Assembly: GCA_025993795.1 (NCBI GenBank)
Contig: JAMQHL010000034.1
Span: forward strand, 9,291-73,290
DNA from: Planctomycetota bacterium
GTDB lineage: Bacteria > Planctomycetota > UBA8742 > UBA2392
Direction of reading: 5' to 3'
DNA length: 64,000 bases
A model generated the notes under the pieces. It had not been told where the DNA came from. It saw only the letters and a list, made by a program, of their open reading frames with translations, and searched no databases. The position numbers and the translations under genes are program-made. Shown here piece after piece: positions 26,222-38,489 of this stretch (position 1 is the stretch's first letter; every line of letters starts with the position of its first letter).

Positions 26222-26926
26222 CTACTCTTCGTCTTCGTACTTGGGCCAGCTGGTGATGTCGTCGCCCCGGCCGTACTGGTTGATGCCGTCGGGCCCGAAG
26301 CTCCATAGTGCGTAGTCGGACGGATATGCGCCCGTGGTCGGGTGACGCAGGGCATCCTGGGCGTCCTGCGCGGTGATTCGGATCTGCGTGCCATTGGCCA
26401 GCGTGATGTTCTGGTCAAGGCGCCCGTTGCGTAACTCCACGATGTTGACGTACACAAGCGGGTTGCCCCACGGATCTACAAATTCAAACAGGTCGCGCGA
26501 AGTGCCCACTTCGATGTCCAGGGCCTGCGGCGCAAGTGCGCTCTCGACCACCAGGTCAAGGTCCATGTTTGTGCGGCGCTTGTCGTCGGCAAACAACGGC
26601 ACGTTCAGGTAGGGTCCGTTTTCCTTGCGCGAGCGCAGCGCCAGAATCAGCGTCTCGATGCCTTCGTTTTCCTTGTTCGGGGCTGCCAGCACCTGGTTGG
26701 GCATCATCAGCGCCGCAAGGTCCTGCATGTTGCTTGGCGGTGCCGTTCCCCAGCGCGCCGAGTAGCTGTCAATGTTGGTCTTGAGCGTCTGGATTGTGGC
26801 GGTGGCTTCAGCCTGTTCGCTTTTTGAGAACGCGCCCGAGAACGCAACCACCAGCACCGCCATCAGGATCACGATGATCCCGATGACAATCATGATCTCG
26901 ATCAGCGTGAAGCCGCGCCTGCGCAT
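26222..26926 (-). CDS. Type IV pilin / GspG-like pseudopilin
   Basis: Class III signal RG|FTLIE + hydrophobic helix; DPWGNPL..WSFGPDG..DDI C-terminal motifs. Confidence 0.9.
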   Translation of the reverse strand: MRRRGFTLIEIMIVIGIIVILMAVLVVAFSGAFSKSEQAEATATIQTLKTNIDSYSARWGTAPPSNMQDLAALMMPNQVLAAPNKENEGIETLILALRSRKENGPYLNVPLFADDKRRTNMDLDLVVESALAPQALDIEVGTSRDLFEFVDPWGNPLVYVNIVELRNGRLDQNITLANGTQIRITAQDAQDALRHPTTGAYPSDYALWSFGPDGINQYGRGDDITSWPKYEDEE

Positions 26927-29859
26927 CAGTTTCTCCGGCGTTCGCCCAAGCCGCTGTCGAAAATGAACTTGACACGCTCAATCTCGACGCTGGCCTGTGT
27001 GCCGCGGAACGCGTTGACGTAAAAGCCCGCCGTCGCCTCAAGGTCAGCGTTCTTGAAATCGTTGCGGGCCATGGCGTCGGCGCGGTCCATGGGCAGTTTG
27101 ACCTCGAACCCGTTAATCAGCGCGAAGTACTGCACGTCGCTGCCGTCATCGGCCAGTTGGCGGCGTATGCCCAGCACAAGCGGCTGCTCAAGATTCAGCG
27201 GCACGCCGCCGTAGTCGCCGACATCGACGTACCCGAACTGTTTGCGTTTCTCGGGCTCGGCGGTGTTGTCGGTCTTGAACTCGCGGGTTTCCCAATACAC
27301 GCGCCCGTCACTGTCAATGCCGACCATCATCGACGCCAGCGGCACAGGCGTTGCGCCCGACGAAGGTTTGCGGTACTTGGCGATATAGACCCCGCGTTCC
27401 CAGTTGTCGGTGCCCATGCGCACAAACTCTGCTTCCATGGCAGCCAGCGTGCGGTGGGGGCGCTTGATCTCGATGCGGCTTGGAATACTGGTCTCGGCTT
27501 GCTTGATGCCGAGCTTGAGGCGCCCGCCCTTGATGCCCGTGTTGGGGATAAACCCGGCGTCAGGTTTTGGCACGCGCGGGACGTTCCAGCTTCCGAAGTA
27601 GTCGTCCTTGCTGTCGGTATTGAAGTCTTCGACATCAAAGTATTGGCGCTGGTTCTCTTCAATCTTGCGCAGCCACTCTTTGGCATAAGCCAGCGGCACG
27701 CTTTTCTGATAGTCCTGGTGCAGCGTGCTGCTGGAGAAGAAGCGCTTGTCCACGGCTCGCGCCAGATGGTCAAAGAACGCCTGCTTGGCGTCGTTATGAA
27801 AACCCAGGCTGTACTGGGCATAGGCATACACGTTGTAGCAGGCCAGGCTGGGCACGTCTGCGATTTCGCGCTCGGTGGGGTTCTGGGCCTTTTCGCCATC
27901 GGCATAGATCGTCAACTGGTCAATCAGCTCGCGGCTCAGGTCACGCGCCTTGGACAGGTAGGCCTTGCGTACTTCTGTCCGGTCTGTCGCGACAGCAATC
28001 GCCTGTGGCGCGGTTTCAGACAGGCGCAGGTAGAGCGTTGCCAGGGCAAGCTTGGTAGCCGGCTGACGCGGCTGGATTGCCAGTGCCGCCGAAAAGAACG
28101 CCGCAGCTTCCTTCATGGTGGGGGTAAGCTCGCCGGCAAAGTCCACGGATTCGCCGGCGGCAAAGCGTACCAGCAGTGCAGCCCGAATGCGTTCAATGTC
28201 CGCCAAGGCGATTTCGGCCAGCATGACCAGTGCCGGGTAGAAGTCGGGCTCATACTTCAGGCAGCGTGCCAGGTAGTCCTTGGCAAACACCTGCAGGCCG
28301 GCCTTCATGTTCAGGTCCGCTGCTGCAAAGTTCAGCAGCGTGTGCTGCGGGTTGACGTCGAGGCCTGCGGTGGCCGCAGCCAGCGCCTCACGGAACATGC
28401 CGATGCGGGCGTACAGGCGATACTCGGCCAGCCAGGCCTCGGCCGAAAGCGGGTCGATCTTCTTGGCGGCTTCAATCACGGCCAGCGTATCGCCGCGGGG
28501 TGCAGCGGGTTTGTCGGGTCGTGTCATGCGGTATTGGCCGTCCGTCTGCGCATAGATAACAAGCGCGCGCGCCATCAGCGGATTGAGCGGGTACACCGTG
28601 GCTGCGGCGGGAGACGCATAGCCCAATGCTTCGTTCCACCAGGGCAACGTTTTGACGATGTCGCGGATCTTGTCGTGGTCGGCCTTCTCTTCGCCGCGGC
28701 GGGGCAGGTTGCGGTGCAGCAGCATCGCGCAGTAAAGCACGCGGCCTGCGGCCCAGCCGGGTGCTCCCTGCGGGATCTTGTCCAGCGCAGACGTGGACGC
28801 GCCGAAGTCCTGCAGACTGAACTCAAGTTCGGCCAGGGTCAGCCAGGCGCGGCCCTGCTCAGCTTCCGCGCTGGTTTCCAGCACCAGCTCGGTGCCGGCC
28901 AGCATGCCGACAAGGTCTGTAATCTCGGTACGGGCTTCCGCAAAGCGCTTCAATTCAATGAAGCAGCGCGCGAGCAGCCAGCGGGCCTCGCTGTGGTTGC
29001 GCGCGTTGGCAAGGTGCGGAATGGCAGATTCATAGAGTTGCAGGCGCGAAACGAAGATGCGTCCAACAGCCAGCGAAAAGCGTTCACGGTCGGGGCTTTC
29101 CACGCCGGAGCGCAGCGCGCTGAGATAGGTGCTTAGCTCAGAGTCCAGGTTGTTGCGCGTTCGGTGGAAGTTGGCAAGTTCGTCGTAAATGCCCGCGAAC
29201 TTGGGATTGCGGTCGCGGATGTACACGAATTGCGCCTGGTAGAACTGGGCGAACTCGTTTCGTTCTTCGGGGCTGAATCCGGTTTCGCTGTTGTCTACGT
29301 TTGCGATGATGTCGCGGTGGGCGGCTTCCCAGTCATTGACTGCCTTTTGCCGCTCTTCGCCGCTGAACTGGTTGACATAGCCTTCGAATATGTCGACCCA
29401 GGTCTGCGGATAGCCCTTGATCGTCACCTTGGAGGGCGGCACCCAGTAAAGCCGCTTGCGCTCATCCACGATGTTCAACATGCCGGCGCCATCGACGCGT
29501 GGCTGGCGGGGATTGATTGCGTAAAAGTAGAAGCGTGAGCCCTCAGGCGCCGGCGTGCCAAGCCAGCGGGCAAAGGCGGCGCGCCAAAGCGCGGTGTTAT
29601 AGCGGCGCGCAAGACCGGTACGGTCCCAGCGTTCAACCCGAAGCAGGAAGTCGTCGCTGGAGGCGCCGACAAGGTTGCCGCCGGAGCGGTCGGTAATCCG
29701 GTTCGGGCGCACCTCCCATTCGCGGTTGGCGCCCTCCATCTGGAGCACCAGGTAGCGGCGTGGCGTGTCGGTGAGCGTGATCTGGCTTGCCAGCGCGGGC
29801 GCAAACAGGCCGGCGCCGGCGAGCAGCAGCAGGCAGGCGAACAATCGCGGGCGGATCAT
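26926..29859 (-). CDS. Large exported TPR-rich protein with C-terminal beta domain
   Basis: Signal MIRPRLFACLLLLAGAGLFAPALA; many A/L/Y helical repeats; TGATG overlap with pilin start; start may be 29889. Confidence 0.8.
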   Translation of the reverse strand: MIRPRLFACLLLLAGAGLFAPALASQITLTDTPRRYLVLQMEGANREWEVRPNRITDRSGGNLVGASSDDFLLRVERWDRTGLARRYNTALWRAAFARWLGTPAPEGSRFYFYAINPRQPRVDGAGMLNIVDERKRLYWVPPSKVTIKGYPQTWVDIFEGYVNQFSGEERQKAVNDWEAAHRDIIANVDNSETGFSPEERNEFAQFYQAQFVYIRDRNPKFAGIYDELANFHRTRNNLDSELSTYLSALRSGVESPDRERFSLAVGRIFVSRLQLYESAIPHLANARNHSEARWLLARCFIELKRFAEARTEITDLVGMLAGTELVLETSAEAEQGRAWLTLAELEFSLQDFGASTSALDKIPQGAPGWAAGRVLYCAMLLHRNLPRRGEEKADHDKIRDIVKTLPWWNEALGYASPAAATVYPLNPLMARALVIYAQTDGQYRMTRPDKPAAPRGDTLAVIEAAKKIDPLSAEAWLAEYRLYARIGMFREALAAATAGLDVNPQHTLLNFAAADLNMKAGLQVFAKDYLARCLKYEPDFYPALVMLAEIALADIERIRAALLVRFAAGESVDFAGELTPTMKEAAAFFSAALAIQPRQPATKLALATLYLRLSETAPQAIAVATDRTEVRKAYLSKARDLSRELIDQLTIYADGEKAQNPTEREIADVPSLACYNVYAYAQYSLGFHNDAKQAFFDHLARAVDKRFFSSSTLHQDYQKSVPLAYAKEWLRKIEENQRQYFDVEDFNTDSKDDYFGSWNVPRVPKPDAGFIPNTGIKGGRLKLGIKQAETSIPSRIEIKRPHRTLAAMEAEFVRMGTDNWERGVYIAKYRKPSSGATPVPLASMMVGIDSDGRVYWETREFKTDNTAEPEKRKQFGYVDVGDYGGVPLNLEQPLVLGIRRQLADDGSDVQYFALINGFEVKLPMDRADAMARNDFKNADLEATAGFYVNAFRGTQASVEIERVKFIFDSGLGERRRN

Positions 29860-29900
29860 CGTGTGCTTCAGTTGTGCGTTGCCGATCATGTTTGTGCTCG

Positions 29901-30380
29901 TTACTCGTCTGTTGCGCGCAGCTCGACGCGGCGGTTGTCGCGCGGCACATAGGCTGCCACGCGTGACAGGCTGGGGCGTGCGCCGGCTGCCACGTCAAAA
30001 TCGTGCATCGCCGAAAAACCGGGCGCCTGCAATTCAAGCGGCGGCAGGCCTTCGTAAGTTTCCTGGGTCAGGGACCAGGCGGAAGCCTTGGGCGGTGTGT
30101 ATATGTCGCGGTCATCAAAAAACGGCCGGTTGATGTCATGGGCATCGGGTTGCGTTGGCGTAATCTCGGTTGGCTTTTCCAGCAGGCGCAGCGCCTTCTC
30201 GGCGGTCGCCGGGTCGGCCTTGGCTGTGCTCATGCTGCCTGCGCGAACCTCAGCGTCGATGTCTGCGATACCGCCGCCCAGCGGCCGCGCCTTCAGCGCG
30301 ATCAGAATGGTGGCAATGAGCACGATCCCGAACAGGATCTTCTCTTTCCATTCCTCAAGGATTCTGAGTGCCTTGTCCAT
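29901..30380 (-). CDS. Hypothetical bitopic membrane protein of the pilus operon
   Basis: One TM (ILFGIVLIATILIAL), Pro-rich tail; 3 nt from the upstream gene. Confidence 0.75.
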   Translation of the reverse strand: MDKALRILEEWKEKILFGIVLIATILIALKARPLGGGIADIDAEVRAGSMSTAKADPATAEKALRLLEKPTEITPTQPDAHDINRPFFDDRDIYTPPKASAWSLTQETYEGLPPLELQAPGFSAMHDFDVAAGARPSLSRVAAYVPRDNRRVELRATDE

Positions 30381-30383
30381 ACG

Positions 30384-31310
30384 CTACCGGAACCTTCTGG
30401 GCTGGTTGGTCTGCTGTTCCTGCTTCTTGGCCGATTCATCTGCCGGGTAGGTTGACTGCTCATTCACCTGGAAGGCGACCACGGTCAGTGACGCGAAGAT
30501 CAGGTTGTCCTGCGGCTGCAACAGGTCAGGTTTTTCAAACTTGAAATCCTCAATGGCAAGGTAGCGGTTCTTCATTTCGCCCTTCACGGGGCGTTGCAGG
30601 TCGATCATGAAGTTGTACAGGGCTTCTTCTGTGGCGCGGATCTTTACGCGCAGCGCGGTGCCGCTCATGAACGGTGGTTCGCCGACGCCGGCGGGCTTGG
30701 TGGGCACGCCGCGCTTATCAAGCTGGTCGTCAACGGCGCGGAAGTCGAGCTCGTTCAGTTCGGCAACCTTGCTGCGTTCGACCGAGCCTGCGACGCAGCG
30801 CACGATGTCGAGCATTTTGAGAAAGCGCTCGACGTCGCTGCTCTTGATGTCGGCGCGGTCTTCCGGCACCTGAAAGCCGAACGCCTTGCGGGCGTTGACG
30901 TCCTGTGTGAAATAGCGCTGGTAGCCAAGCTGGCGCTTGAGGTCGAGCATCAGTTGCGTGAAGTGCTGGAACTGGTCACCCTCATTCGCGTTCTCTGGCA
31001 GCACGGCAAGGGTGTAATCCGGCGCGTAGACAAAGGCCAGGCGCTCGTTGCGCGCGGTGCTGACCTGGTTGATCGTCTGCGTGCGGTCCTGGATGCGGCG
31101 GCCCTGCAGCGTCGCGGGCTCGCCCTTGAACTTCACGGCGTCGCCGAACAGTGCACGGTAGTTGGTGGTGAACAGCGTGCGCGCCTGCGCCTGCTTTGAA
31201 TCCAGGCTCAGTGAAAGATCACTGAATTCGCCGCTGGCGACAATCAAGATCACCAGCAGCACAATCAGCACAGCCGCAAAGCGCGCGTGTTTCTTGACGT
31301 GCTTCATCAT
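30384..31310 (-). CDS. PilO-like bitopic protein
   Basis: N-terminal TM, helical middle, C-terminal LYNFMIDL..LAIEDFKFEK alpha/beta pattern; 4-nt overlap with pilM. Confidence 0.55.
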   Translation of the reverse strand: MMKHVKKHARFAAVLIVLLVILIVASGEFSDLSLSLDSKQAQARTLFTTNYRALFGDAVKFKGEPATLQGRRIQDRTQTINQVSTARNERLAFVYAPDYTLAVLPENANEGDQFQHFTQLMLDLKRQLGYQRYFTQDVNARKAFGFQVPEDRADIKSSDVERFLKMLDIVRCVAGSVERSKVAELNELDFRAVDDQLDKRGVPTKPAGVGEPPFMSGTALRVKIRATEEALYNFMIDLQRPVKGEMKNRYLAIEDFKFEKPDLLQPQDNLIFASLTVVAFQVNEQSTYPADESAKKQEQQTNQPRRFR

Positions 31311-32974
31311 TTCGCGCCCTCCTGTGCCAGGATGTCAAGCTCAAGCGTGTGCACAACGTCAAGACCCTCTGCGGCCGGATTGTCCTTGGCCGAGCCAGGA
31401 ATCACCTTGGTGACGCCCTTGATGCCGGTCAGCACGCCGCGCAGGTCGGTGTTGACCTGGTTGGGGTCGGCGCCCGGCAGGCGCTCAATGAAGAACTCGA
31501 GCTTCAGGCGCGTGATCGGTTTGAATTCTTTCGTGTTGGCCGGGTTGTTGGTGTCGGTCACCAGCTCCGCAGAGCGGATGCGCACTGAATCCGGGCGTTT
31601 TGCGTTCAGCGCAATCAGCACCTGCGTTGCGACGCGGCCGGGGCCGGGCGCGACAAGGCCCGCTTCGGCGCGTTTGGCGGCACGCTGGGAGGCTTTTTCG
31701 TAAATCTCGACCTCGCTGCTGGCGCTGGCGTAGCGCCCAAGCGGGCCCTGCTGCGTCTTCCTGAGGTACTCGTCGGCTTCCGTCGTGCTCTTGTTGGTTA
31801 ATACGTAGAGCGGCAGCACCACCGCCAGCACAAGCGCGGCCGCCAGATAAAGGAAAATGCTGTGGTTCAGGAACTCGCGGCGGCGTCGCACGCTGGCCGG
31901 CAGGAACTCTGCGCGCTCGGCTTTGCGGTCTGCGTCCAGCGCGGCCAGGCCCAGCGCGAGTGCAAGTGCCGGTCGGTAGGCCTGCGCCGTCTCGTTGCCC
32001 TTGGCGTCGAGGGCGCCCGCATCCACGTTGGCCAGGGGGTCGAAGACCTCAACGGTCTTGCGAACCCGGTTCATCATCAACTCACGCAGGCCTGGAATGG
32101 CCGCGCCGGCGCCTGACAGCACGATCTTGCGCACGTCCATGGCCGTGGCGCGCATGGCGGCCTTGGCCACCATCACCGTGCCCAGAATCTGCTGGAACAG
32201 GCGGGCCGCAACTTCCTGGCCGGCCTCAACGCCGCGGTCATTGCTCAGGTTGTCTGCGGCGATGCTGGGCCGCAGGTCAATCTGCCGGAAAAGCAGCTGG
32301 CGTACCGCGTCGCGGTCGGTGCCGTACTCGGGCAACAGGCGTGTGATGAAGTCATTGACGCCGACGCTGAGCGTGCGGGCGTACATCAACTGGCCTTCGC
32401 GCACCAGAATCACGTCGGTTGCGTCATCGCCGATGTTTGCATACAGCGAAACGTAATCGCCCTCGGTGTCGCCGGATATGCGGTAAGCCTGGTACAGCGC
32501 GATACAACCGGGGATCAGCGGGCCGACCTCAAGGCCGCTGGCGGCCAGGCTGTTGGCGTAGTGGTCAATCACCTCTTCACGCGCCAGCGCGACATGAATC
32601 GCGGGCGAATAGTCAAAGTCGTTGCCGGTAATGTAGTCAGCGAGAATCTTGCCGCCTTCGCCCGCCATCTCGTCGGCTTCGACCTTTACCGACATCTCGA
32701 TGTGTTTGGGGTTGGTCGTGGCCAGGGGCGCAAAGCGGTAATAGACGTCTTTGCCCGGCACCAGGGTGGCCGGGCGCTTGCCCTTGATGCCCTTGCCCTG
32801 CAACGCGCCGTAGGTTGTGCCCAGCGGGGCGCCCGCGTTTGCTTCGGGTCGTTGCTCGGGGTCAGGCGCAAAGCCCGGCAATGCAATGCAGGCGCGCAAT
32901 TTCCAGGCGCCGCCTGTGCGCACGACGCTTGCGTAAAGGCTGAGGTTGCTGCCGATGTCTACGCCTGTGCCCAT
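31307..32974 (-). CDS. pilM: PilM-like actin-fold domain fused to TM and PilN-like domain
   Basis: GVDIGS, NIGDDATDV, KIVLSGAGA..PGL, ALALGLA..AEFLP..RRR, TM, then periplasmic domain. Confidence 0.8.
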   Translation of the reverse strand: MGTGVDIGSNLSLYASVVRTGGAWKLRACIALPGFAPDPEQRPEANAGAPLGTTYGALQGKGIKGKRPATLVPGKDVYYRFAPLATTNPKHIEMSVKVEADEMAGEGGKILADYITGNDFDYSPAIHVALAREEVIDHYANSLAASGLEVGPLIPGCIALYQAYRISGDTEGDYVSLYANIGDDATDVILVREGQLMYARTLSVGVNDFITRLLPEYGTDRDAVRQLLFRQIDLRPSIAADNLSNDRGVEAGQEVAARLFQQILGTVMVAKAAMRATAMDVRKIVLSGAGAAIPGLRELMMNRVRKTVEVFDPLANVDAGALDAKGNETAQAYRPALALALGLAALDADRKAERAEFLPASVRRRREFLNHSIFLYLAAALVLAVVLPLYVLTNKSTTEADEYLRKTQQGPLGRYASASSEVEIYEKASQRAAKRAEAGLVAPGPGRVATQVLIALNAKRPDSVRIRSAELVTDTNNPANTKEFKPITRLKLEFFIERLPGADPNQVNTDLRGVLTGIKGVTKVIPGSAKDNPAAEGLDVVHTLELDILAQEGAK

Positions 32975-33010
32975 GCTGTCCCGGTCCTCACCACTGCCAG
33001 ACTGCTGTGA

Positions 33011-36000
33011 CTATCCCTCTTCTTCCGGCAACCCCGCGGGAAGCCGCCCCGTCAGGGCCTGCAGCCGCCGGGCCAGCGCGCTCTCGCGGTCCAGCCATCC
33101 TGACGGAGGTGTTTCGGCTGAGAACGGCATGTTCTTCAGCCACTTCTTCTGGCCTTCGGTCAGCAGCACCGAAAGCAGATGCGCCTGCACCAGCCTGATC
33201 AGGTCGCGTGCCTGAACCGCGCGATCGGTGGCGATGTTCTTGAGGCCCTGCTTGTTGAACTGGTCCATTTCCTTGAGCAGGATGTCCGCCACATCGGCCA
33301 GGCGTTCCTTTGCTTCAATACCGCGCAGACAGCGCGGGTAGCGCCGCACCACAGTCTGCAGTTTCAGCATTCCCTGCACGTACTGTCCGCTTTGCAGGTA
33401 GTCGCGCGCGCTGACGATGTACGGCTCGCTGTCACGTTGCTCAATCTCGATCTCAAGCATGAACAGGCTTTCACGCGCCCCTTCTGCAAGCTCGCTGAAG
33501 TCCTCGGCCACCTGCTTGAGTTGCGTCAGGGCCGCTCGGGCCTTGCGAGCCGTTTCTTTGCTGCGCTTGTTCATGCCGCCGCCCGCAAGCTCTGCCTGCA
33601 GCGTGAGCTGGGTGTCGTCCCATGTCGAGGCGGAGCCTCGAAGCTTGTCGGCAGTGTCAATCGCCTCGCGCATCGCCGAGCGGTACAGCTGCTCATTGCG
33701 CGTCAGGGCCGGCACGTTGATTCCGTCGCGCAGTTCAATCAACCGCAGCCGGTAGTGCTTGCTGGCAGCGTCAATTGCCTCGGCCGCAGCCGCAATCTCG
33801 GACTGGTTGTACGTAAAGTCGGCGATCAGTTTCAACGCGCGGTTGACGCGGTCGACCTGATCTTCACCGGGCTGTACGGCGCTGAGCAGCCCAAGGTTGC
33901 GTTGCAGTTCGTCGCTGCCCTGTCCGGGCTTGAAGGTCAGCGACAGACTGCCGCTGTTCTGCAGCAGCAGCTCGCGGCCCCCGACCGCCGATCCCGCCCA
34001 GGCCCGGGCTCCCGGCGACTCAATCAGGTTGCCGGTGCCGGTATCAGCAGCAAGCAGGCGACCAAACATGGATCGCTCGGCGCGCGCTACGCCGATGTCA
34101 TCTGCGTAAGCGGCAGGGTATTTTCCGTCCGGCTCAAAGCGCACGAGCTCGCCGGGGACCCACTGCGGTGTGGCCAGCGCGTTCAGCGCGACAAAGCGCG
34201 CCGCCTTGCTGAAGTCGCCTGACGCCGTCTGTTCAAGGCGTGCGCTGAATGTCGCGCCCGCGTCTTTGCCGCCCAGGTTGACCAGCAGCCTGACGTCATG
34301 TCCCGCGACCGGATCAAAGTAAAGGAAGCTGCCCTGGATTTCATTGCCCGAGGTGGTGAGGCTCGGCGGCTCAACCAGAGTCTGCATCGGGTCAAGCGGG
34401 TCTTCGCGCCCTTCGGCGGCGTACAGCAGAATGCGCCCACCGCGCAGCAGGCGCCCACCCGGGCCACTGAGTTCAATGTCGCCTTCGGGCGAAAACTCCC
34501 ACGACAAGCCGGTAACGGAACTGACCTGCTGGGTCGTCATCATCGCCCGCGCGTTATCGTCGGCTTGAACTGCAATCTCGTCGAACATGACGCTGCCGGG
34601 TGTGCCGCTGATGCCCACTGCAATGCTGAACGCCCTGGCCCTGTCGGGGGCGCGGGCGCTGCCTGCAAGTTCCGTCCACTCCTGCATGCGGGTGCGCGCC
34701 GCAATCGGCGTGACCAGAATGGGGTCACGGTCGCGCGGGTGGGCAAACCACCAGACCTGCACCAGCGCCGTGCCGAGACGGTCGTTGCCGAACTCGGGGT
34801 TCATCGCGAACGCGCTGACGCTGACGCCGCGGGACTTGAGTTCAATGGCGTCGCTGACCGCGAGACTGATGCGGTTGCTTGCATTGAAACGCCCGATCAG
34901 CAATGCGTATTGTCCGCCCTTGGCACCTTCGGTCAGGCTGAAGTTATCCGTGCCGCTGACTGAGTAACGCCAGCCGCGAGGAAAGCCGCTTTCGTCGCGG
35001 TCGTCAAAGCTGGAGTTCGCGCCCAGCAGGCCGCCGCCGCGTGCCGCCGGGAATGAGCCATCGCCCCGGCCGCCGCCCTCGGAATTGCTGGTGGTCATCG
35101 TATACGCGGCGAACAGGACGGCCCCGGCCACGATCAGCACAATCAAGATTTCCGCAATCGCAAAGACCGCGCCGCCGCCACCGCTGAAGCGCACCTTCTG
35201 GGTCAGGGCCGCCATGTCCGTCTGCGATGCCTGGCGCAGGTCGGCTTCGCTGGCTTCGCCAACCGGAATGCCGGCGGCATCGACAACATCATCAACGTCG
35301 TCATCCGGCTGTCGCTCTGCCTTGCGGGCTTCATCGAGGCGCTTGCGAACATCCGTGCCCGCGAGTTTTGGGGCGGACTGGCCGCTGCTTTCGTTGGGCT
35401 TTCCGTGAAGCTGGAACTTGAATACCTGGCTGCCCAGCACGACCTTCATGCCGGTCGTTAGCTTGACCGGGCCGGTGATCCTGGTGCCGTTGATCACGAC
35501 GCCATTCGTGCTGCCCAGGTCCTCAATAATGTAGTCCACTCCGTCTTTGCGGATGCGGGCATGGTAGCCGCTGGATTTGCCGTCGTTTTCAAGGCAGAGC
35601 TGATTGTCGTGTTTGCGCCCGATGTTGTACGGGTCATGGGTCAGCGGATGGATTTTGTCCGGCAGGCTGCCCTGCAACAGCACCAGCGCAGCCGGTGCGA
35701 CCACGGTGCGTGTGCTCTGGCTGCTGTCGGGCTCAGGGCCTGCATTGTCAGCCTGTTCAAGGTCAAGGCCGCTGGCGCGCGTGCTTTGGACGCCGGCCAT
35801 GACGGTGTTGGCGCCCGGGCCCCCGGTCTCTTCGAATTGCATGTCCACTGTGCCGATGGTGATGATGTCGCCGGGTTTGATCGCGCCTTCCTGAACACGC
35901 CTGCCATTTAGGAACGTGCCATTCTGCGAGCCAAGATCGACGATCGCCCAGGCATCGTCGCGCTTCTCAAAGCGGCAGTGCGCGCGGGAGAGCCGCGTGT

Positions 36001-36103
36001 CCTTGACCACCACGTTGGAGTGCTTTTCCGAACGCCCAACCGTTGCGGCGTCGGTCAGCTCGACGGGGGGGTGCTCACTCTTTTTGAAGACAATACGGGG
36101 CAT
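33011..36103 (-). CDS. Double-FHA bitopic protein with extracytoplasmic jelly-roll-like and helical domains
   Basis: FHA1 VGRS..LSRAHC..DLGSQNGT; FHA2 IGRK..SSGYHA..DLGSTNGV; TM ILIVLIVAGAVLFAAY. Confidence 0.88.
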   Translation of the reverse strand: MPRIVFKKSEHPPVELTDAATVGRSEKHSNVVVKDTRLSRAHCRFEKRDDAWAIVDLGSQNGTFLNGRRVQEGAIKPGDIITIGTVDMQFEETGGPGANTVMAGVQSTRASGLDLEQADNAGPEPDSSQSTRTVVAPAALVLLQGSLPDKIHPLTHDPYNIGRKHDNQLCLENDGKSSGYHARIRKDGVDYIIEDLGSTNGVVINGTRITGPVKLTTGMKVVLGSQVFKFQLHGKPNESSGQSAPKLAGTDVRKRLDEARKAERQPDDDVDDVVDAAGIPVGEASEADLRQASQTDMAALTQKVRFSGGGGAVFAIAEILIVLIVAGAVLFAAYTMTTSNSEGGGRGDGSFPAARGGGLLGANSSFDDRDESGFPRGWRYSVSGTDNFSLTEGAKGGQYALLIGRFNASNRISLAVSDAIELKSRGVSVSAFAMNPEFGNDRLGTALVQVWWFAHPRDRDPILVTPIAARTRMQEWTELAGSARAPDRARAFSIAVGISGTPGSVMFDEIAVQADDNARAMMTTQQVSSVTGLSWEFSPEGDIELSGPGGRLLRGGRILLYAAEGREDPLDPMQTLVEPPSLTTSGNEIQGSFLYFDPVAGHDVRLLVNLGGKDAGATFSARLEQTASGDFSKAARFVALNALATPQWVPGELVRFEPDGKYPAAYADDIGVARAERSMFGRLLAADTGTGNLIESPGARAWAGSAVGGRELLLQNSGSLSLTFKPGQGSDELQRNLGLLSAVQPGEDQVDRVNRALKLIADFTYNQSEIAAAAEAIDAASKHYRLRLIELRDGINVPALTRNEQLYRSAMREAIDTADKLRGSASTWDDTQLTLQAELAGGGMNKRSKETARKARAALTQLKQVAEDFSELAEGARESLFMLEIEIEQRDSEPYIVSARDYLQSGQYVQGMLKLQTVVRRYPRCLRGIEAKERLADVADILLKEMDQFNKQGLKNIATDRAVQARDLIRLVQAHLLSVLLTEGQKKWLKNMPFSAETPPSGWLDRESALARRLQALTGRLPAGLPEEEG

Positions 36104-36260
36104 GTGTGCCGTCAGGCAGTGTGCAAGGTCAATCCGGGGGACCCCCAGAGTTTATCCCAAGTCCATCGCCATACAAGGATTGCCGTAATCTGAACATTGC
36201 GAAACCGGGGGGTGCCCGGCGGCGCAATCCAATCCGCGAAGGGCCGGTTTGTGGCTTCCG

Positions 36261-38489
36261 CTAGTCACCCATGGCCGCCTGGTGCGCGGGCTGGGAGGCC
36301 TTGAGGTCCTCCAGCATCAGCCGAATCGTGTCACTCGCGTAGCTGTAGGTGTGCCAGCGCCCGGTTTTGGCGCCAATGTCGTCCATGGTCTGGCCGATCA
36401 GGCGCCTGAATTCCTTGTAATCGTCGAGGGTCATTTTCATTTCGAAGAGACGTCTCACCTGTTCGCGGGTCAGCCCCGTCGGCACCGGGTTGCCATCCTC
36501 GTCAACGCCAGGCCAGTTGTTCTCCATGAAGATATCAAAGTTATCGCGGAAGTACCCGAAGGGGTCTGTGATCGAGCTGAGCTCGGCCCTGTCCGCGAGC
36601 AGGGCAAAGCAATTCTGGCGCTTCGAAAACAGCGGGCGGACGTCGCCCATGTACTTCGAACTGGCGGTCAGGCCGGCGACCAGCCAGTCGCGGACCTCGT
36701 CGTAAAAGTGCTTGCGGACCAGTTCGCGCGCAAGGTCATGGTCATCCATGTCGAACTCAAGCCATGTCAGGACCATTTCTTTGATCGCAGCGCGATTGGC
36801 GTCAAACAGCTCGGGCTTTTTCTTGATCGCATTGCCGACATGGGCCTGCTCGTTCGTGCGGATAAGCGACAGGCGACGGTTTATGCCGTACATGTTAATG
36901 CCCAGTTTGTACTCAAAGTCAGGGTCATTGCTGGCGGCATCTGCCAGCAGCTTGTAGTGGTTCTGCCAGGTCGTGTCGTACCAGTTCCACCAGTTGCGGC
37001 GTATGGACGGGTCGGTCGCATAGTTCCAGAAGCCACCAAGGTGCATGTCGCGCTCAATGATGGACCAGTCACCTATCGTGAGAAAGCGCTGCCGATAACG
37101 ATCAAGCTGGGTCTTGGCTTCGGCATAGCTCTTGTTGCGCGCGTCCCAGTATTGCTTTGAGGCAAGAGCCTGCTTCATCAGGTCGATGACCAGCGGAATC
37201 GTCGGTTGATCGCCAAATGCCATCGCCAGTTTTTCGATGGCAGCATTGCTCTGTTCCTTGAGCAGCTTTTCGTCCTGGATCGTCTTTGTGGCGGCGTCAA
37301 TTGCCTGGGCCTGATCGCGCAGTTTCTTCAAGCCGTCGGTAAACCCCTTTTCGCCCGCCGCGATCTCGGTCAACGCGAGGCACCTGGCGGAGTCACCCTC
37401 GGCCAGCGCACTGCGGGCGTCAAGATAGGCTTGCGCGCGCCGTATCAGCGCCTTGTGAACATCCGAAGGCGCGCGGTCGCGCAGCGCAGCCTTGATGGCG
37501 CTCAGGGCCTGGTCGGGCCGGTCGCCGGCCAGCAACTCTTCGGTTATGCGCGTGGCTGCGTTCAGCTCATATGTGTCAACTTCGTCAAGCGCGCTCTTGA
37601 GTGCGTCGGTGCCGCCGTGGACTTCGATATGCTTGAGCAAGAGCGTACGTGCATCGTCAGGCTTGCCCGACGACAGGTAGGCGCGTGCGCTTTCGATGAC
37701 TTTGCGCTCGGGGTTTTCCGCCGGGCCGCTGAACACCGCCAGCCCAACGATAATTGCCGTTGCCAGGATCAGCGCCGCCGCAATCACGGCAATGACCATG
37801 CCTCGCGACGATTTGCCCTGGCTTTCGACCAGGGCTTCCAGCGTGTCCTGGTAACGCGTGAACTCTTTTTCGGCCAGGTTGGTCAGCTCAAGCACGCGGG
37901 TCTTGTTCTTTTCCTTGTCGATGTTGGTGCCTTTGATGACTTTCTGGTAGCGCTCGTCGGCTTCATCCATCGCGACTTTGTACAGCTTGATCTCGCTGCT
38001 TTCGGCGCCCTTGGGGCGGAACGCCTTGACGAAAGAAGTCGGCACCTCGGACTTGTTCATGGCAAGAAACACGGACTCGGTGAAGTAGATCTCGTCAGGA
38101 TTCGTTGCCTTCTCAATCTTTGCGGCCACGTTCACCGGGTCGCCGAACACATCGTTTTCAGTAACCGTGACTTCGCCGCTGTTGATGCTGACCTTGATGT
38201 GAATCGCGTGGGAGTCGTCTTTGCCGACGTTGAACTTGCGCAGCGTGTGCTGCATGAACAGGCCGCACTGCACGGCGTTGGTCGGGCTCTCAAACGTAAT
38301 CAGGAACGCATCGCCGATGGTCTTGACGATCTTGCCGTCAAAGTGCGCCACGATCGGCATAAGCAGCTCGTTGTGTGTATCCAGCCGTGACATCAGGTCC
38401 TGGCGGCTGATCGTCTCGGTGTGCTTGGTGAAACCCGAAATGTCGGTGAACATAACGGTAAGATTCTTCTGCATGCGGCTGGTAGACAT
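36261..38489 (-). CDS. Class III adenylate/guanylate cyclase with TM and extracytoplasmic helical domain
   Basis: VMFTDISGFT, KTIGDAFL, DVFGDPVNVAAKIE; TM MVIAVIAAALILATAIIVGL. Confidence 0.9.
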   Translation of the reverse strand: MSTSRMQKNLTVMFTDISGFTKHTETISRQDLMSRLDTHNELLMPIVAHFDGKIVKTIGDAFLITFESPTNAVQCGLFMQHTLRKFNVGKDDSHAIHIKVSINSGEVTVTENDVFGDPVNVAAKIEKATNPDEIYFTESVFLAMNKSEVPTSFVKAFRPKGAESSEIKLYKVAMDEADERYQKVIKGTNIDKEKNKTRVLELTNLAEKEFTRYQDTLEALVESQGKSSRGMVIAVIAAALILATAIIVGLAVFSGPAENPERKVIESARAYLSSGKPDDARTLLLKHIEVHGGTDALKSALDEVDTYELNAATRITEELLAGDRPDQALSAIKAALRDRAPSDVHKALIRRAQAYLDARSALAEGDSARCLALTEIAAGEKGFTDGLKKLRDQAQAIDAATKTIQDEKLLKEQSNAAIEKLAMAFGDQPTIPLVIDLMKQALASKQYWDARNKSYAEAKTQLDRYRQRFLTIGDWSIIERDMHLGGFWNYATDPSIRRNWWNWYDTTWQNHYKLLADAASNDPDFEYKLGINMYGINRRLSLIRTNEQAHVGNAIKKKPELFDANRAAIKEMVLTWLEFDMDDHDLARELVRKHFYDEVRDWLVAGLTASSKYMGDVRPLFSKRQNCFALLADRAELSSITDPFGYFRDNFDIFMENNWPGVDEDGNPVPTGLTREQVRRLFEMKMTLDDYKEFRRLIGQTMDDIGAKTGRWHTYSYASDTIRLMLEDLKASQPAHQAAMGD

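Follow-up and report, generated by a model that had tools for sequence, protein, structure and literature searches.

A conserved six-gene operon that probably encodes the inner-membrane platform and major pilin of a type IV filament machine in Planctomycetota

Amuc_1100 is a medically studied protein of Akkermansia. It is paired with Amuc_1101 in the MUL2 locus (PMC13174399), for which a link with the use of mucin and the uptake of glycans has been described in Akkermansiaceae (PMC13174399). In this work we have analysed a stretch of 64,000 nucleotides, hereafter the window, from a bacterium of the phylum Planctomycetota (assembly GCA_025993795.1, contig JAMQHL010000034.1, positions 9,291 to 73,290), and specifically seven co-directional genes on its minus strand which span window positions 26222-38489. 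They code for a nucleotidyl cyclase, a protein with two forkhead-associated (FHA) domains, a fusion of PilM with a PilN-like part (PilMN), a PilO-like protein, a small bitopic protein, a large tetratricopeptide repeat (TPR) protein and a pilin. Planctomycetes have unusual envelopes and surface fibres, and the uptake of whole polymers has been reported for them; to our knowledge, the genes behind these envelopes, fibres and polymer uptake are largely unknown. Two of the products examined here, PilMN and the PilO-like protein, resemble the pair formed by Amuc_1101 and Amuc_1100 (PMC13174399). We consider it likely that the six genes from the double-FHA gene through the pilin gene form one operon, and that a planctomycete type IV filament machine owes its inner-membrane platform and its major fibre subunit to this operon.

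Judging by gene order and profile searches, the six-gene block is widespread in Planctomycetota. It is marked by two additions: a bitopic protein with two FHA domains, and a large TPR protein. A family-level scan with one genome per species yielded 18 loci in metagenome-assembled genomes. One of these is a 4-kb contig fragment which holds four block genes in order; 16 of the remaining 17 span the block, and in all 16 the order FHA, PilMN, PilO-like, bitopic, TPR, pilin and the orientation are the same, at protein identities from about 97% down to about 35%. The same gene order was found in two order-level genomes at 26-38% identity. An earlier interpretation of this DNA, made from the letters alone and called here the sequence-only reading, had staked its case on the FHA gene being syntenic with pilM in relatives. 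This expectation was borne out: the FHA gene lies directly upstream of PilMN in 16/16 family loci that extend to this position and in 21 of 24 loci of other Planctomycetota lineages, which were searched with profiles built from the window's family. A match to the pilin profile lies downstream of PilMN in 22 of these 24 loci, and the gene between PilMN and the pilin is matched by the TPR profile (A4) in 15, while several others have a gene of ~900-1000 codons there. The layout of FHA gene, PilMN gene, a gene for ~260-320 aa, a TPR gene for ~900 aa and a pilin gene recurs in the majority of another 20 loci, which come from other planctomycete families. A PilMN profile (A1) was also applied at E <= 1e-10, a threshold at which it picks only the copy in the window from its own genome, without the two other PilM genes; in 233 of the 401 Planctomycetota genomes it matched an ORF, and most of these ORFs have about 540-720 codons. 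Of 20 family genomes sampled, 19 have a match to the PilO-like profile; two genomes at order level also match it, as do, weakly, another two. Some lineages extend the block by further pilin-like genes, one of 1597 codons, and in other lineages an FHA-sigma54 activator gene often stands in front of it.

Two loci deserve a separate mention. In L045, from a 2.8-Mb genome of the same order (G029), the locus has only 44% GC and carries the whole six-gene block at 27-37% protein identity; it can serve alignments as a divergent reference point. In L064 (9271-14212), from one distant genome, the position directly upstream of PilMN, where the FHA gene would stand, is taken by a secretin-like gene of ~1000 codons, and no pilin or TPR match was found downstream.

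Within the window, the gene positions and junctions first proposed were confirmed when we read the sequence (Table 1). The FHA and PilMN genes are separated by 36 nt, the PilMN and PilO-like genes overlap by 4 nt (ATGA), the PilO-like and 159-aa bitopic genes are 3 nt apart (TAG-CGT-ATG), the gap between the bitopic and TPR genes is 11 nt, and the TPR and pilin genes overlap in TGATG. The cyclase gene is separated from the FHA gene by 157 nt, a distance for which the sequence-only reading had given no figure. This gap, together with the conservation of the six-gene unit without the cyclase, suggests that the promoter of the operon probably lies within it. Promoter and terminator consensus scans performed no better than on shuffled sequences, and no sigma-70-like site was found in the gap. 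In other lineages the block is preceded by genes for FHA-sigma54 activators, and for this reason both upstream intergenic regions were also scanned for a sigma-54-like site; none was found. The GC content at third codon positions is 0.73-0.81 in all seven ORFs, like that of the other genes of the window. Every one of the seven products has exactly one strongly hydrophobic segment, which fits a bitopic, signal-peptide or prepilin topology. It is internal in the cyclase (residues 232-250), the FHA protein (313-331) and PilMN (373-391), and N-terminal in the PilO-like, 159-aa, TPR and pilin proteins. The flanking genes are unrelated, one being a divergent gene of the dihydrodipicolinate synthase family and the other a convergent metallo-beta-lactamase (MBL)-rhodanese gene.

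Table 1. Features of the seven-gene region, in window coordinates and in the direction of transcription.
Feature	Position	Strand	Length	Assigned by
Class III nucleotidyl cyclase	36261..38489	-	742 aa	PF00211
Cyclase-FHA intergenic region	36104..36260	-	157 nt	
Double-FHA bitopic protein	33011..36103	-	1030 aa	PF00498, AlphaFold2/Foldseek
PilMN (PilM-transmembrane-periplasmic fusion)	31307..32974	-	555 aa	PF11104, TIGR01175, NF045709
PilO-fold bitopic protein	30384..31310	-	308 aa	AlphaFold2/Foldseek only
Small bitopic protein, PilP/GspC slot	29901..30380	-	159 aa	Transmembrane segment at about 11-29
Exported TPR protein	26926..29889	-	987 aa	TPR_19 and other TPR families
GspG-type prepilin	26222..26926	-	234 aa	N_methyl, T2SSG, TIGR01710

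PilMN combines PilM and a putative PilN-like transmembrane and periplasmic part in one chain, a topology which is that of GspL. Its PilM actin-like domain was recognized by PilM_2 (PF11104, 32.8 bits, cutoff 27), and residues 282-432, across the transmembrane segment, match the Amuc_1101 family NF045709 (E 3e-16; 59.3 bits against a cutoff of 650). The label 'PilO-like', given to the 308-aa protein by the sequence-only reading, found no support in sequence: there is no Pfam or NCBIfam match, a 17-sequence profile gave nothing significant against all PDB sequences, and alignment of its profile by hhalign with the genome's canonical PilO and with a 344-aa protein of a cluster on contig C41 gave nothing past the transmembrane helix. 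A profile search of 1.84 billion proteins returned only 31 representatives; the family is narrow or fast-evolving. In the predicted fold, however, the label stood. The AlphaFold2 model, built on a 33-sequence alignment (mean predicted local distance difference test (pLDDT) score 89.1, predicted template modelling score 0.73), has a long transmembrane and coiled-coil helix followed by an alpha-beta domain. In a Foldseek search against the PDB its top ten matches were all Akkermansia muciniphila Amuc_1100 (6lad/6kny/6laf; E 4.5e-7 to 5.8e-5, probability 1.0), with target-normalised template modelling scores of 0.58-0.68 (0.63 for 6lad_A, 0.68 for the core domain 6laf_A) at a sequence identity of 7-9%. 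PilO followed Amuc_1100, in the Myxococcus type IVa pilus (T4aP) model (3jc8_O, E 1.6e-4) and in the Pseudomonas structures 2rjz (E 3e-3) and 5uvr, and Thermus PilN was a weak match. The model thus indicates that the label is right at the level of fold, the protein being closest to Amuc_1100 and then to PilO.

The two FHA domains at the start of the operon were detected by PF00498 in two stretches (117.5 bits, E 3.4e-34), and the protein also matches the YscD cytoplasmic-domain model Yop-YscD_cpl (PF16697, 92 bits). In an alignment of 15 FHA-protein sequences (A5), two of them at 26% identity, residues G23/R24, S39/H42 and N61/G62 of the first domain and G162/R163, S178/H181 and N200/G201 of the second are invariant (R24 at least 90%); both domains keep the Gly-Arg, Ser-x-x-His and Asn-Gly residues of phosphothreonine binding. 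The AlphaFold2 model (mean pLDDT 79.9, low in the linkers and about 85-94 in most of the periplasmic part) comprises two cytoplasmic FHA domains, the transmembrane segment, beta-sandwiches at ~350-515 and ~525-725 and an all-helical domain at ~730-1020. Foldseek matched the FHA domains to phosphopeptide-binding FHA domains, namely those of Bdellovibrio DgcB, M. tuberculosis Rv0020c, GarA/OdhI and chlamydial CT664, and the sandwiches to CBM22 modules of xylanases (2w5f, 4xup) and to MAM domains (4gwm, 2c9a). The model and Foldseek revealed no ring-building motifs of type III secretion systems (T3SS) in the periplasmic part, and a search for deeper homologues of this part gave family-level orthologs only. 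The proposed coupling to phosphothreonine through the FHA domains is well founded at the level of sequence and predicted fold. There are ~25 Hanks-type kinase genes in the genome, none of them on the contig of the window.

Could the block then be the planctomycete counterpart of the Akkermansia MUL2 locus (Amuc_1098-1102), that is, a fibre for the capture or uptake of glycans and not a machine for protein secretion? The PilO-like protein is structurally nearest to Amuc_1100, PilMN has a region in common with the Amuc_1101 family, and the FHA protein carries CBM22/MAM-like periplasmic sandwiches; MUL2 itself has been linked to mucin use and glycan uptake (PMC13174399). We nevertheless consider this explanation unlikely. 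A cluster at C41:71596-79717 in the same genome, which encodes a PilM-transmembrane fusion (695 aa), the 344-aa transmembrane protein, a 690-aa protein and a 908-aa secretin, is nearer: its PilM matches the Amuc_1101 family with E 1e-59 (203 bits), as against 3e-16 for PilMN, and by this comparison the C41 cluster is probably the closer counterpart of the MUL2/Amuc_1098-1101 locus. In addition, the block contains a classical GspG-type prepilin, whereas Amuc_1102 has been described as archaeal-pilin-like, and a CBM-like fold is no proof of sugar binding. The machine may secrete proteins, carry a pilus on the surface or capture glycans. The predicted Amuc_1100 fold and CBM-like sandwiches do fit a glycan role; a pilin of GspG type, together with a GspL-like fusion, points more to a pseudopilus like that of type II secretion systems (T2SS).

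The last three proteins of the operon are of different kinds. In the 159-aa protein, a LPPL...PGF...DFD...PRD motif is conserved near the C-terminal end (alignment A3), no lipobox was found, and its profile matches only within the taxonomic order of the window (L044, L045). By eye, its gene might be the split-off N-terminus of the membrane-anchored TPR proteins of other lineages; a hidden Markov model search gave no match outside the order, and the idea is kept as a visual lead only. The 987-aa protein fills the slot which is held by the secretin in pilMNOPQ operons. It consists of a signal peptide, an N-terminal domain, a TPR array and a C-terminal domain of ~250 aa, and TPR families were matched in 17/17 orthologs; a LamG-like C-terminal domain was an impression which could not be confirmed and which we do not claim. 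In two family-level loci, extra DNA separates the bitopic gene from that portion of the TPR gene which was matched (L017:13094-15177, ~2 kb; L022:13085-13802, ~0.7 kb); it could represent either an insertion or an N-terminal half of the TPR protein that has diverged. A class III signal peptide, RRRG/FTLIE, with Glu at +5, is present in the pilin, which matches N_methyl (PF07963) and T2SSG (PF08334, 26.2 bits, cutoff 21). There is an insertion in its globular domain, and solved pilins match its N-terminal helix only.

Where is the rest of the machine? The sequence-only reading had described an assembly module of the type IV filament class which lacks motor, platform and secretin. Our whole-genome search of the assembly (3.29 Mb, 85% complete), in which the contig of the window is C25, agrees with this description, as all matches to T2SSE, T2SSF and secretin models lie on contigs other than C25; the core genes do not lie just outside the window, as that reading had allowed. 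ATPase genes number five of the GspE/PilB type and four of the PilT type; in addition there are three GspF/PilC and four secretin genes, and these core genes are mostly solitary. They include near-cutoff homologues of GspD, GspE and GspF, for example the C14 secretin (339 bits, GspD cutoff 351) and the C69 ATPase (613 bits, GspE cutoff 630). The genome has three PilM-type modules, a canonical pilMNOPQ operon on C66, the cluster on C41 and the six-gene block, and since three GspF proteins, five assembly ATPases and four secretins are available to them, a core that is dispersed and yet dedicated is no less likely than a shared one. No GspE, PilT or GspF match was found within 10 kb of the block in any of the 24 distant loci, and a secretin is nearby in only three of them. 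Because the scattering of motor and secretin holds in every locus examined across the phylum, it is no sign of a borrowed core. We also tried to name the partner secretin from these three loci; different secretin types were matched, and no conclusion was drawn. A prepilin peptidase gene is present in 22 of 23 family genomes, as a single copy far from the operon.

Several other places in the genome carry genes of related kinds. Its ~13 prepilin-type genes lie in five places, and at C29:60842-64498 there are five consecutive ones (179, 192, 224, 261 and 363 aa). This row is a candidate minor-pseudopilin set which, in the window's family, does not stand beside the platform operon. At C16:58081-64561 an FHA-sigma54 activator gene (638 aa, GAFTGA motif) is found upstream of a GspF/PilC gene that stands alone, at a distance of 3.3 kb, and in L046, L049, L051, L058, L061 and L066 genes for activators of this type (31-48% identity) lie directly upstream of the FHA-PilMN block. 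The shared activator type weakly suggests the C16 GspF as the platform partner of the block. Finally, a secretin of 913 aa stands alone in C15:181675-191434; its N-terminal half is rich in TPRs, and a gene for a Hanks-type kinase is ~5 kb away.

More questions were raised by the cyclase gene, which the sequence-only reading had taken as a part of the unit, with cAMP coupling as the consequence. Its product consists of an N-terminal catalytic domain (PF00211, 65.6 bits, cutoff 21.9, E 5.7e-18, residues 7-161), the transmembrane segment and an extracytoplasmic helical or TPR-like part of ~490 aa. The metal-binding Asp residues (FTDISGFT, TIGDAF) and the Lys/Asp pair typical of adenylyl cyclases were seen by eye, and by sequence the domain can be assigned to the class III adenylyl/guanylyl cyclases. 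In a whole-genome search the ortholog was present in 23/23 family genomes. It is co-directional and upstream of the block only in four genomes of the window's genus (G000, G061, G168 and G150) and, among the family-level loci, only in the three closest (L014, L021 and L016). In two genomes of another genus it lies ~3 kb downstream and convergent, as it does in locus L018, and in most other family genomes, one of the same genus included, it is on other contigs or 345-470 kb off. No cyclase gene was found near the block in any of the 24 distant loci. The cyclase is a lineage-specific local neighbour outside the conserved six-gene unit, and because it adjoins the block in one genus only, cAMP control is not a property of the system. 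In the closest relatives (L014:19095-20621, L021:19116-20642) there is a second cyclase-domain gene ~2.3 kb past the pilin gene, beyond the MBL-rhodanese gene, in a place where the window carries menaquinone-pathway genes.

These results bear directly on the function which the sequence-only reading had proposed. It saw in the locus a specialised accessory module which lends its own pseudopilin and TPR protein to another core of the type IV pilus (T4P) or T2SS kind, under phosphothreonine and cAMP control, perhaps for adhesion or contact attack. A contig devoid of motor, platform and secretin agrees with this idea, as do an FHA protein that is integral to the block and a same-strand cyclase gene 157 nt upstream; cyclase genes lie near the block in a second genus too. 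The block is, however, phylum-wide and not specialised, as the PilMN-type matches in more than half of the genomes searched indicate, the supply of GspF, ATPase and secretin genes makes sharing unneeded, most family genomes have the cyclase in another place, it is absent from the surroundings of the distant loci, and our analysis gave no pointer to contact killing; on adhesion or contact attack it yielded no evidence in either direction. We regard an accessory module as very unlikely. Still less likely is a function apart from filaments, in which a scaffold of the PilM/N/O type is re-used as an envelope tether or signalling complex with the pseudopilin as a structural remnant: it would explain why, in the window's family, a single pilin gene and no minor pilins are found in the block and why large scaffold-type proteins (TPR, helical domains) dominate it, but the prepilin cleavage motif and Glu+5 are kept, a pilin accompanies nearly all of the distant loci, other lineages add further pilin-like genes (one of 1597 aa), and the family retains motor, platform, secretin and peptidase genes.

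How might a filament machine built on the six-gene operon work? Gene content, junctions, synteny, distribution, predicted folds and the conservation of FHA residues have been shown above; in the following model we infer the protein-protein contacts, the identity of the partner core, the phospho-regulation and the exported or displayed cargo. By analogy with described machines, the PilM domain, which shares one chain with a PilN-like transmembrane partner in the manner of GspL, would dock a GspE/PilB-type ATPase on the cytoplasmic face, and the periplasmic part of PilMN would pair with the PilO/Amuc_1100-fold protein. The 159-aa bitopic and exported TPR proteins would extend this scaffold towards an outer-membrane secretin, and the GspG-like prepilin would be cleaved by a prepilin peptidase and then polymerise. 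Since both of its FHA domains keep all phosphothreonine-binding residues, the double-FHA protein most likely ties the assembly or activity of the machine to Ser/Thr-kinase signalling. The ATPase, the GspF/PilC platform protein, the secretin, the minor pseudopilins and the prepilin peptidase would be encoded elsewhere. Perhaps the block is the core of a filament machine typical of Planctomycetota and the FHA protein a one-chain transmembrane coupler, in which the sandwiches sense polysaccharide and the twin FHA domains read phosphorylation, switching the pseudopilus on for polymer capture or uptake; this is a speculative extension which we think improbable.

A number of observations weigh against a filament platform encoded by one six-gene operon. 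PilMN stays below the NCBIfam equivalog cutoff (TIGR01175, 64.9 bits against 133, E 6e-18), and so does the pilin, whose match to GspG (TIGR01710) reaches 51.2 bits against a cutoff of 88.85 (E 1.3e-13) and covers profile positions 5-52 of 108. The 159-aa protein has no Pfam, NCBIfam or PDB match, also when used as a 17-sequence profile against the PDB. The PDB profile matches of the 987-aa protein are to TPR only (~455-565), and its C-terminal profile has none. A prepilin peptidase was not found in the window's assembly, which is 85% complete, and a literature search for a planctomycete cluster of this kind found no description. It may be that the ATPase, GspF and secretin of the six-gene module are shared with other modules. 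Lastly, the cyclase has come to lie near the operon in two independent ways in the family, upstream co-directional in the window's genus and ~3 kb downstream convergent in another, and this leaves some room for a loose functional link.

If the six genes do act as a platform, a conserved and phylum-wide operon joins pilus or secretion machinery to a phosphothreonine reader and large periplasmic scaffolds, and this offers a concrete, testable candidate for a planctomycete envelope machine. It also links Amuc_1100 structurally to a platform subunit of the PilO type. For automated secretion-system callers the locus is a caution: the parts of the machine are scattered in Planctomycetota, and an 'incomplete' cluster is the normal state. 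Should the FHA protein be a coupler of the kind outlined above, it would open the structures for uptake and the fibres seen on planctomycete cells to genetic study.

How does the block compare with the described systems? The FHA protein is like SctD (YscD/PrgH) of T3SS and TagH/Fha of type VI secretion systems in having cytoplasmic FHA domains, one transmembrane segment and an extensive portion in the periplasm, and in belonging to a machine of secretion type. It differs from SctD in its periplasmic CBM22/MAM sandwiches and helical domain and in its pilM/pseudopilin context, and we do not count it as an SctD protein. With the Akkermansia Amuc_1098-1102 locus the block shares the pairing of a PilM-transmembrane fusion with an Amuc_1100-fold protein, in bacteria which likewise fall within the PVC superphylum (Planctomycetes-Verrucomicrobia-Chlamydiae). 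The differences are that PilMN is far under the cutoff of the Amuc_1101 model, that FHA and TPR genes are added in the planctomycete block and that C25 has no secretin gene and hence no adjacent one of the Amuc_1098 type. The T4aP PilMNOPQ system of Pseudomonas, Myxococcus and Thermus is resembled in the PilM domain, in the PilO fold (2rjz, 5uvr, 3jc8 chain O) and in the order M, N, O, small protein, large exported protein, which is kept; here, however, PilM and the putative PilN are fused, the small protein is without the lipobox of a PilP lipoprotein, and a TPR protein takes the place of the PilQ secretin, which is absent from the contig. The likeness to T2SS lies in topology and fold only, as no GspL, GspM or GspC match was obtained from Pfam or NCBIfam at E <= 0.1. 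The operon lacks GspD, GspE and GspF, it adds the double-FHA and 987-aa TPR proteins, and its pilin is 234 aa long with an insertion. As in GspL, an actin-fold cytoplasmic domain, a transmembrane segment and a periplasmic domain are joined in one chain; a PilO/GspM-fold bitopic partner follows, then a small bitopic protein in the GspC/PilP slot, and the best family of the pilin is GspG. The block is apparently an undescribed variant of the T2SS/T4P class of machines.

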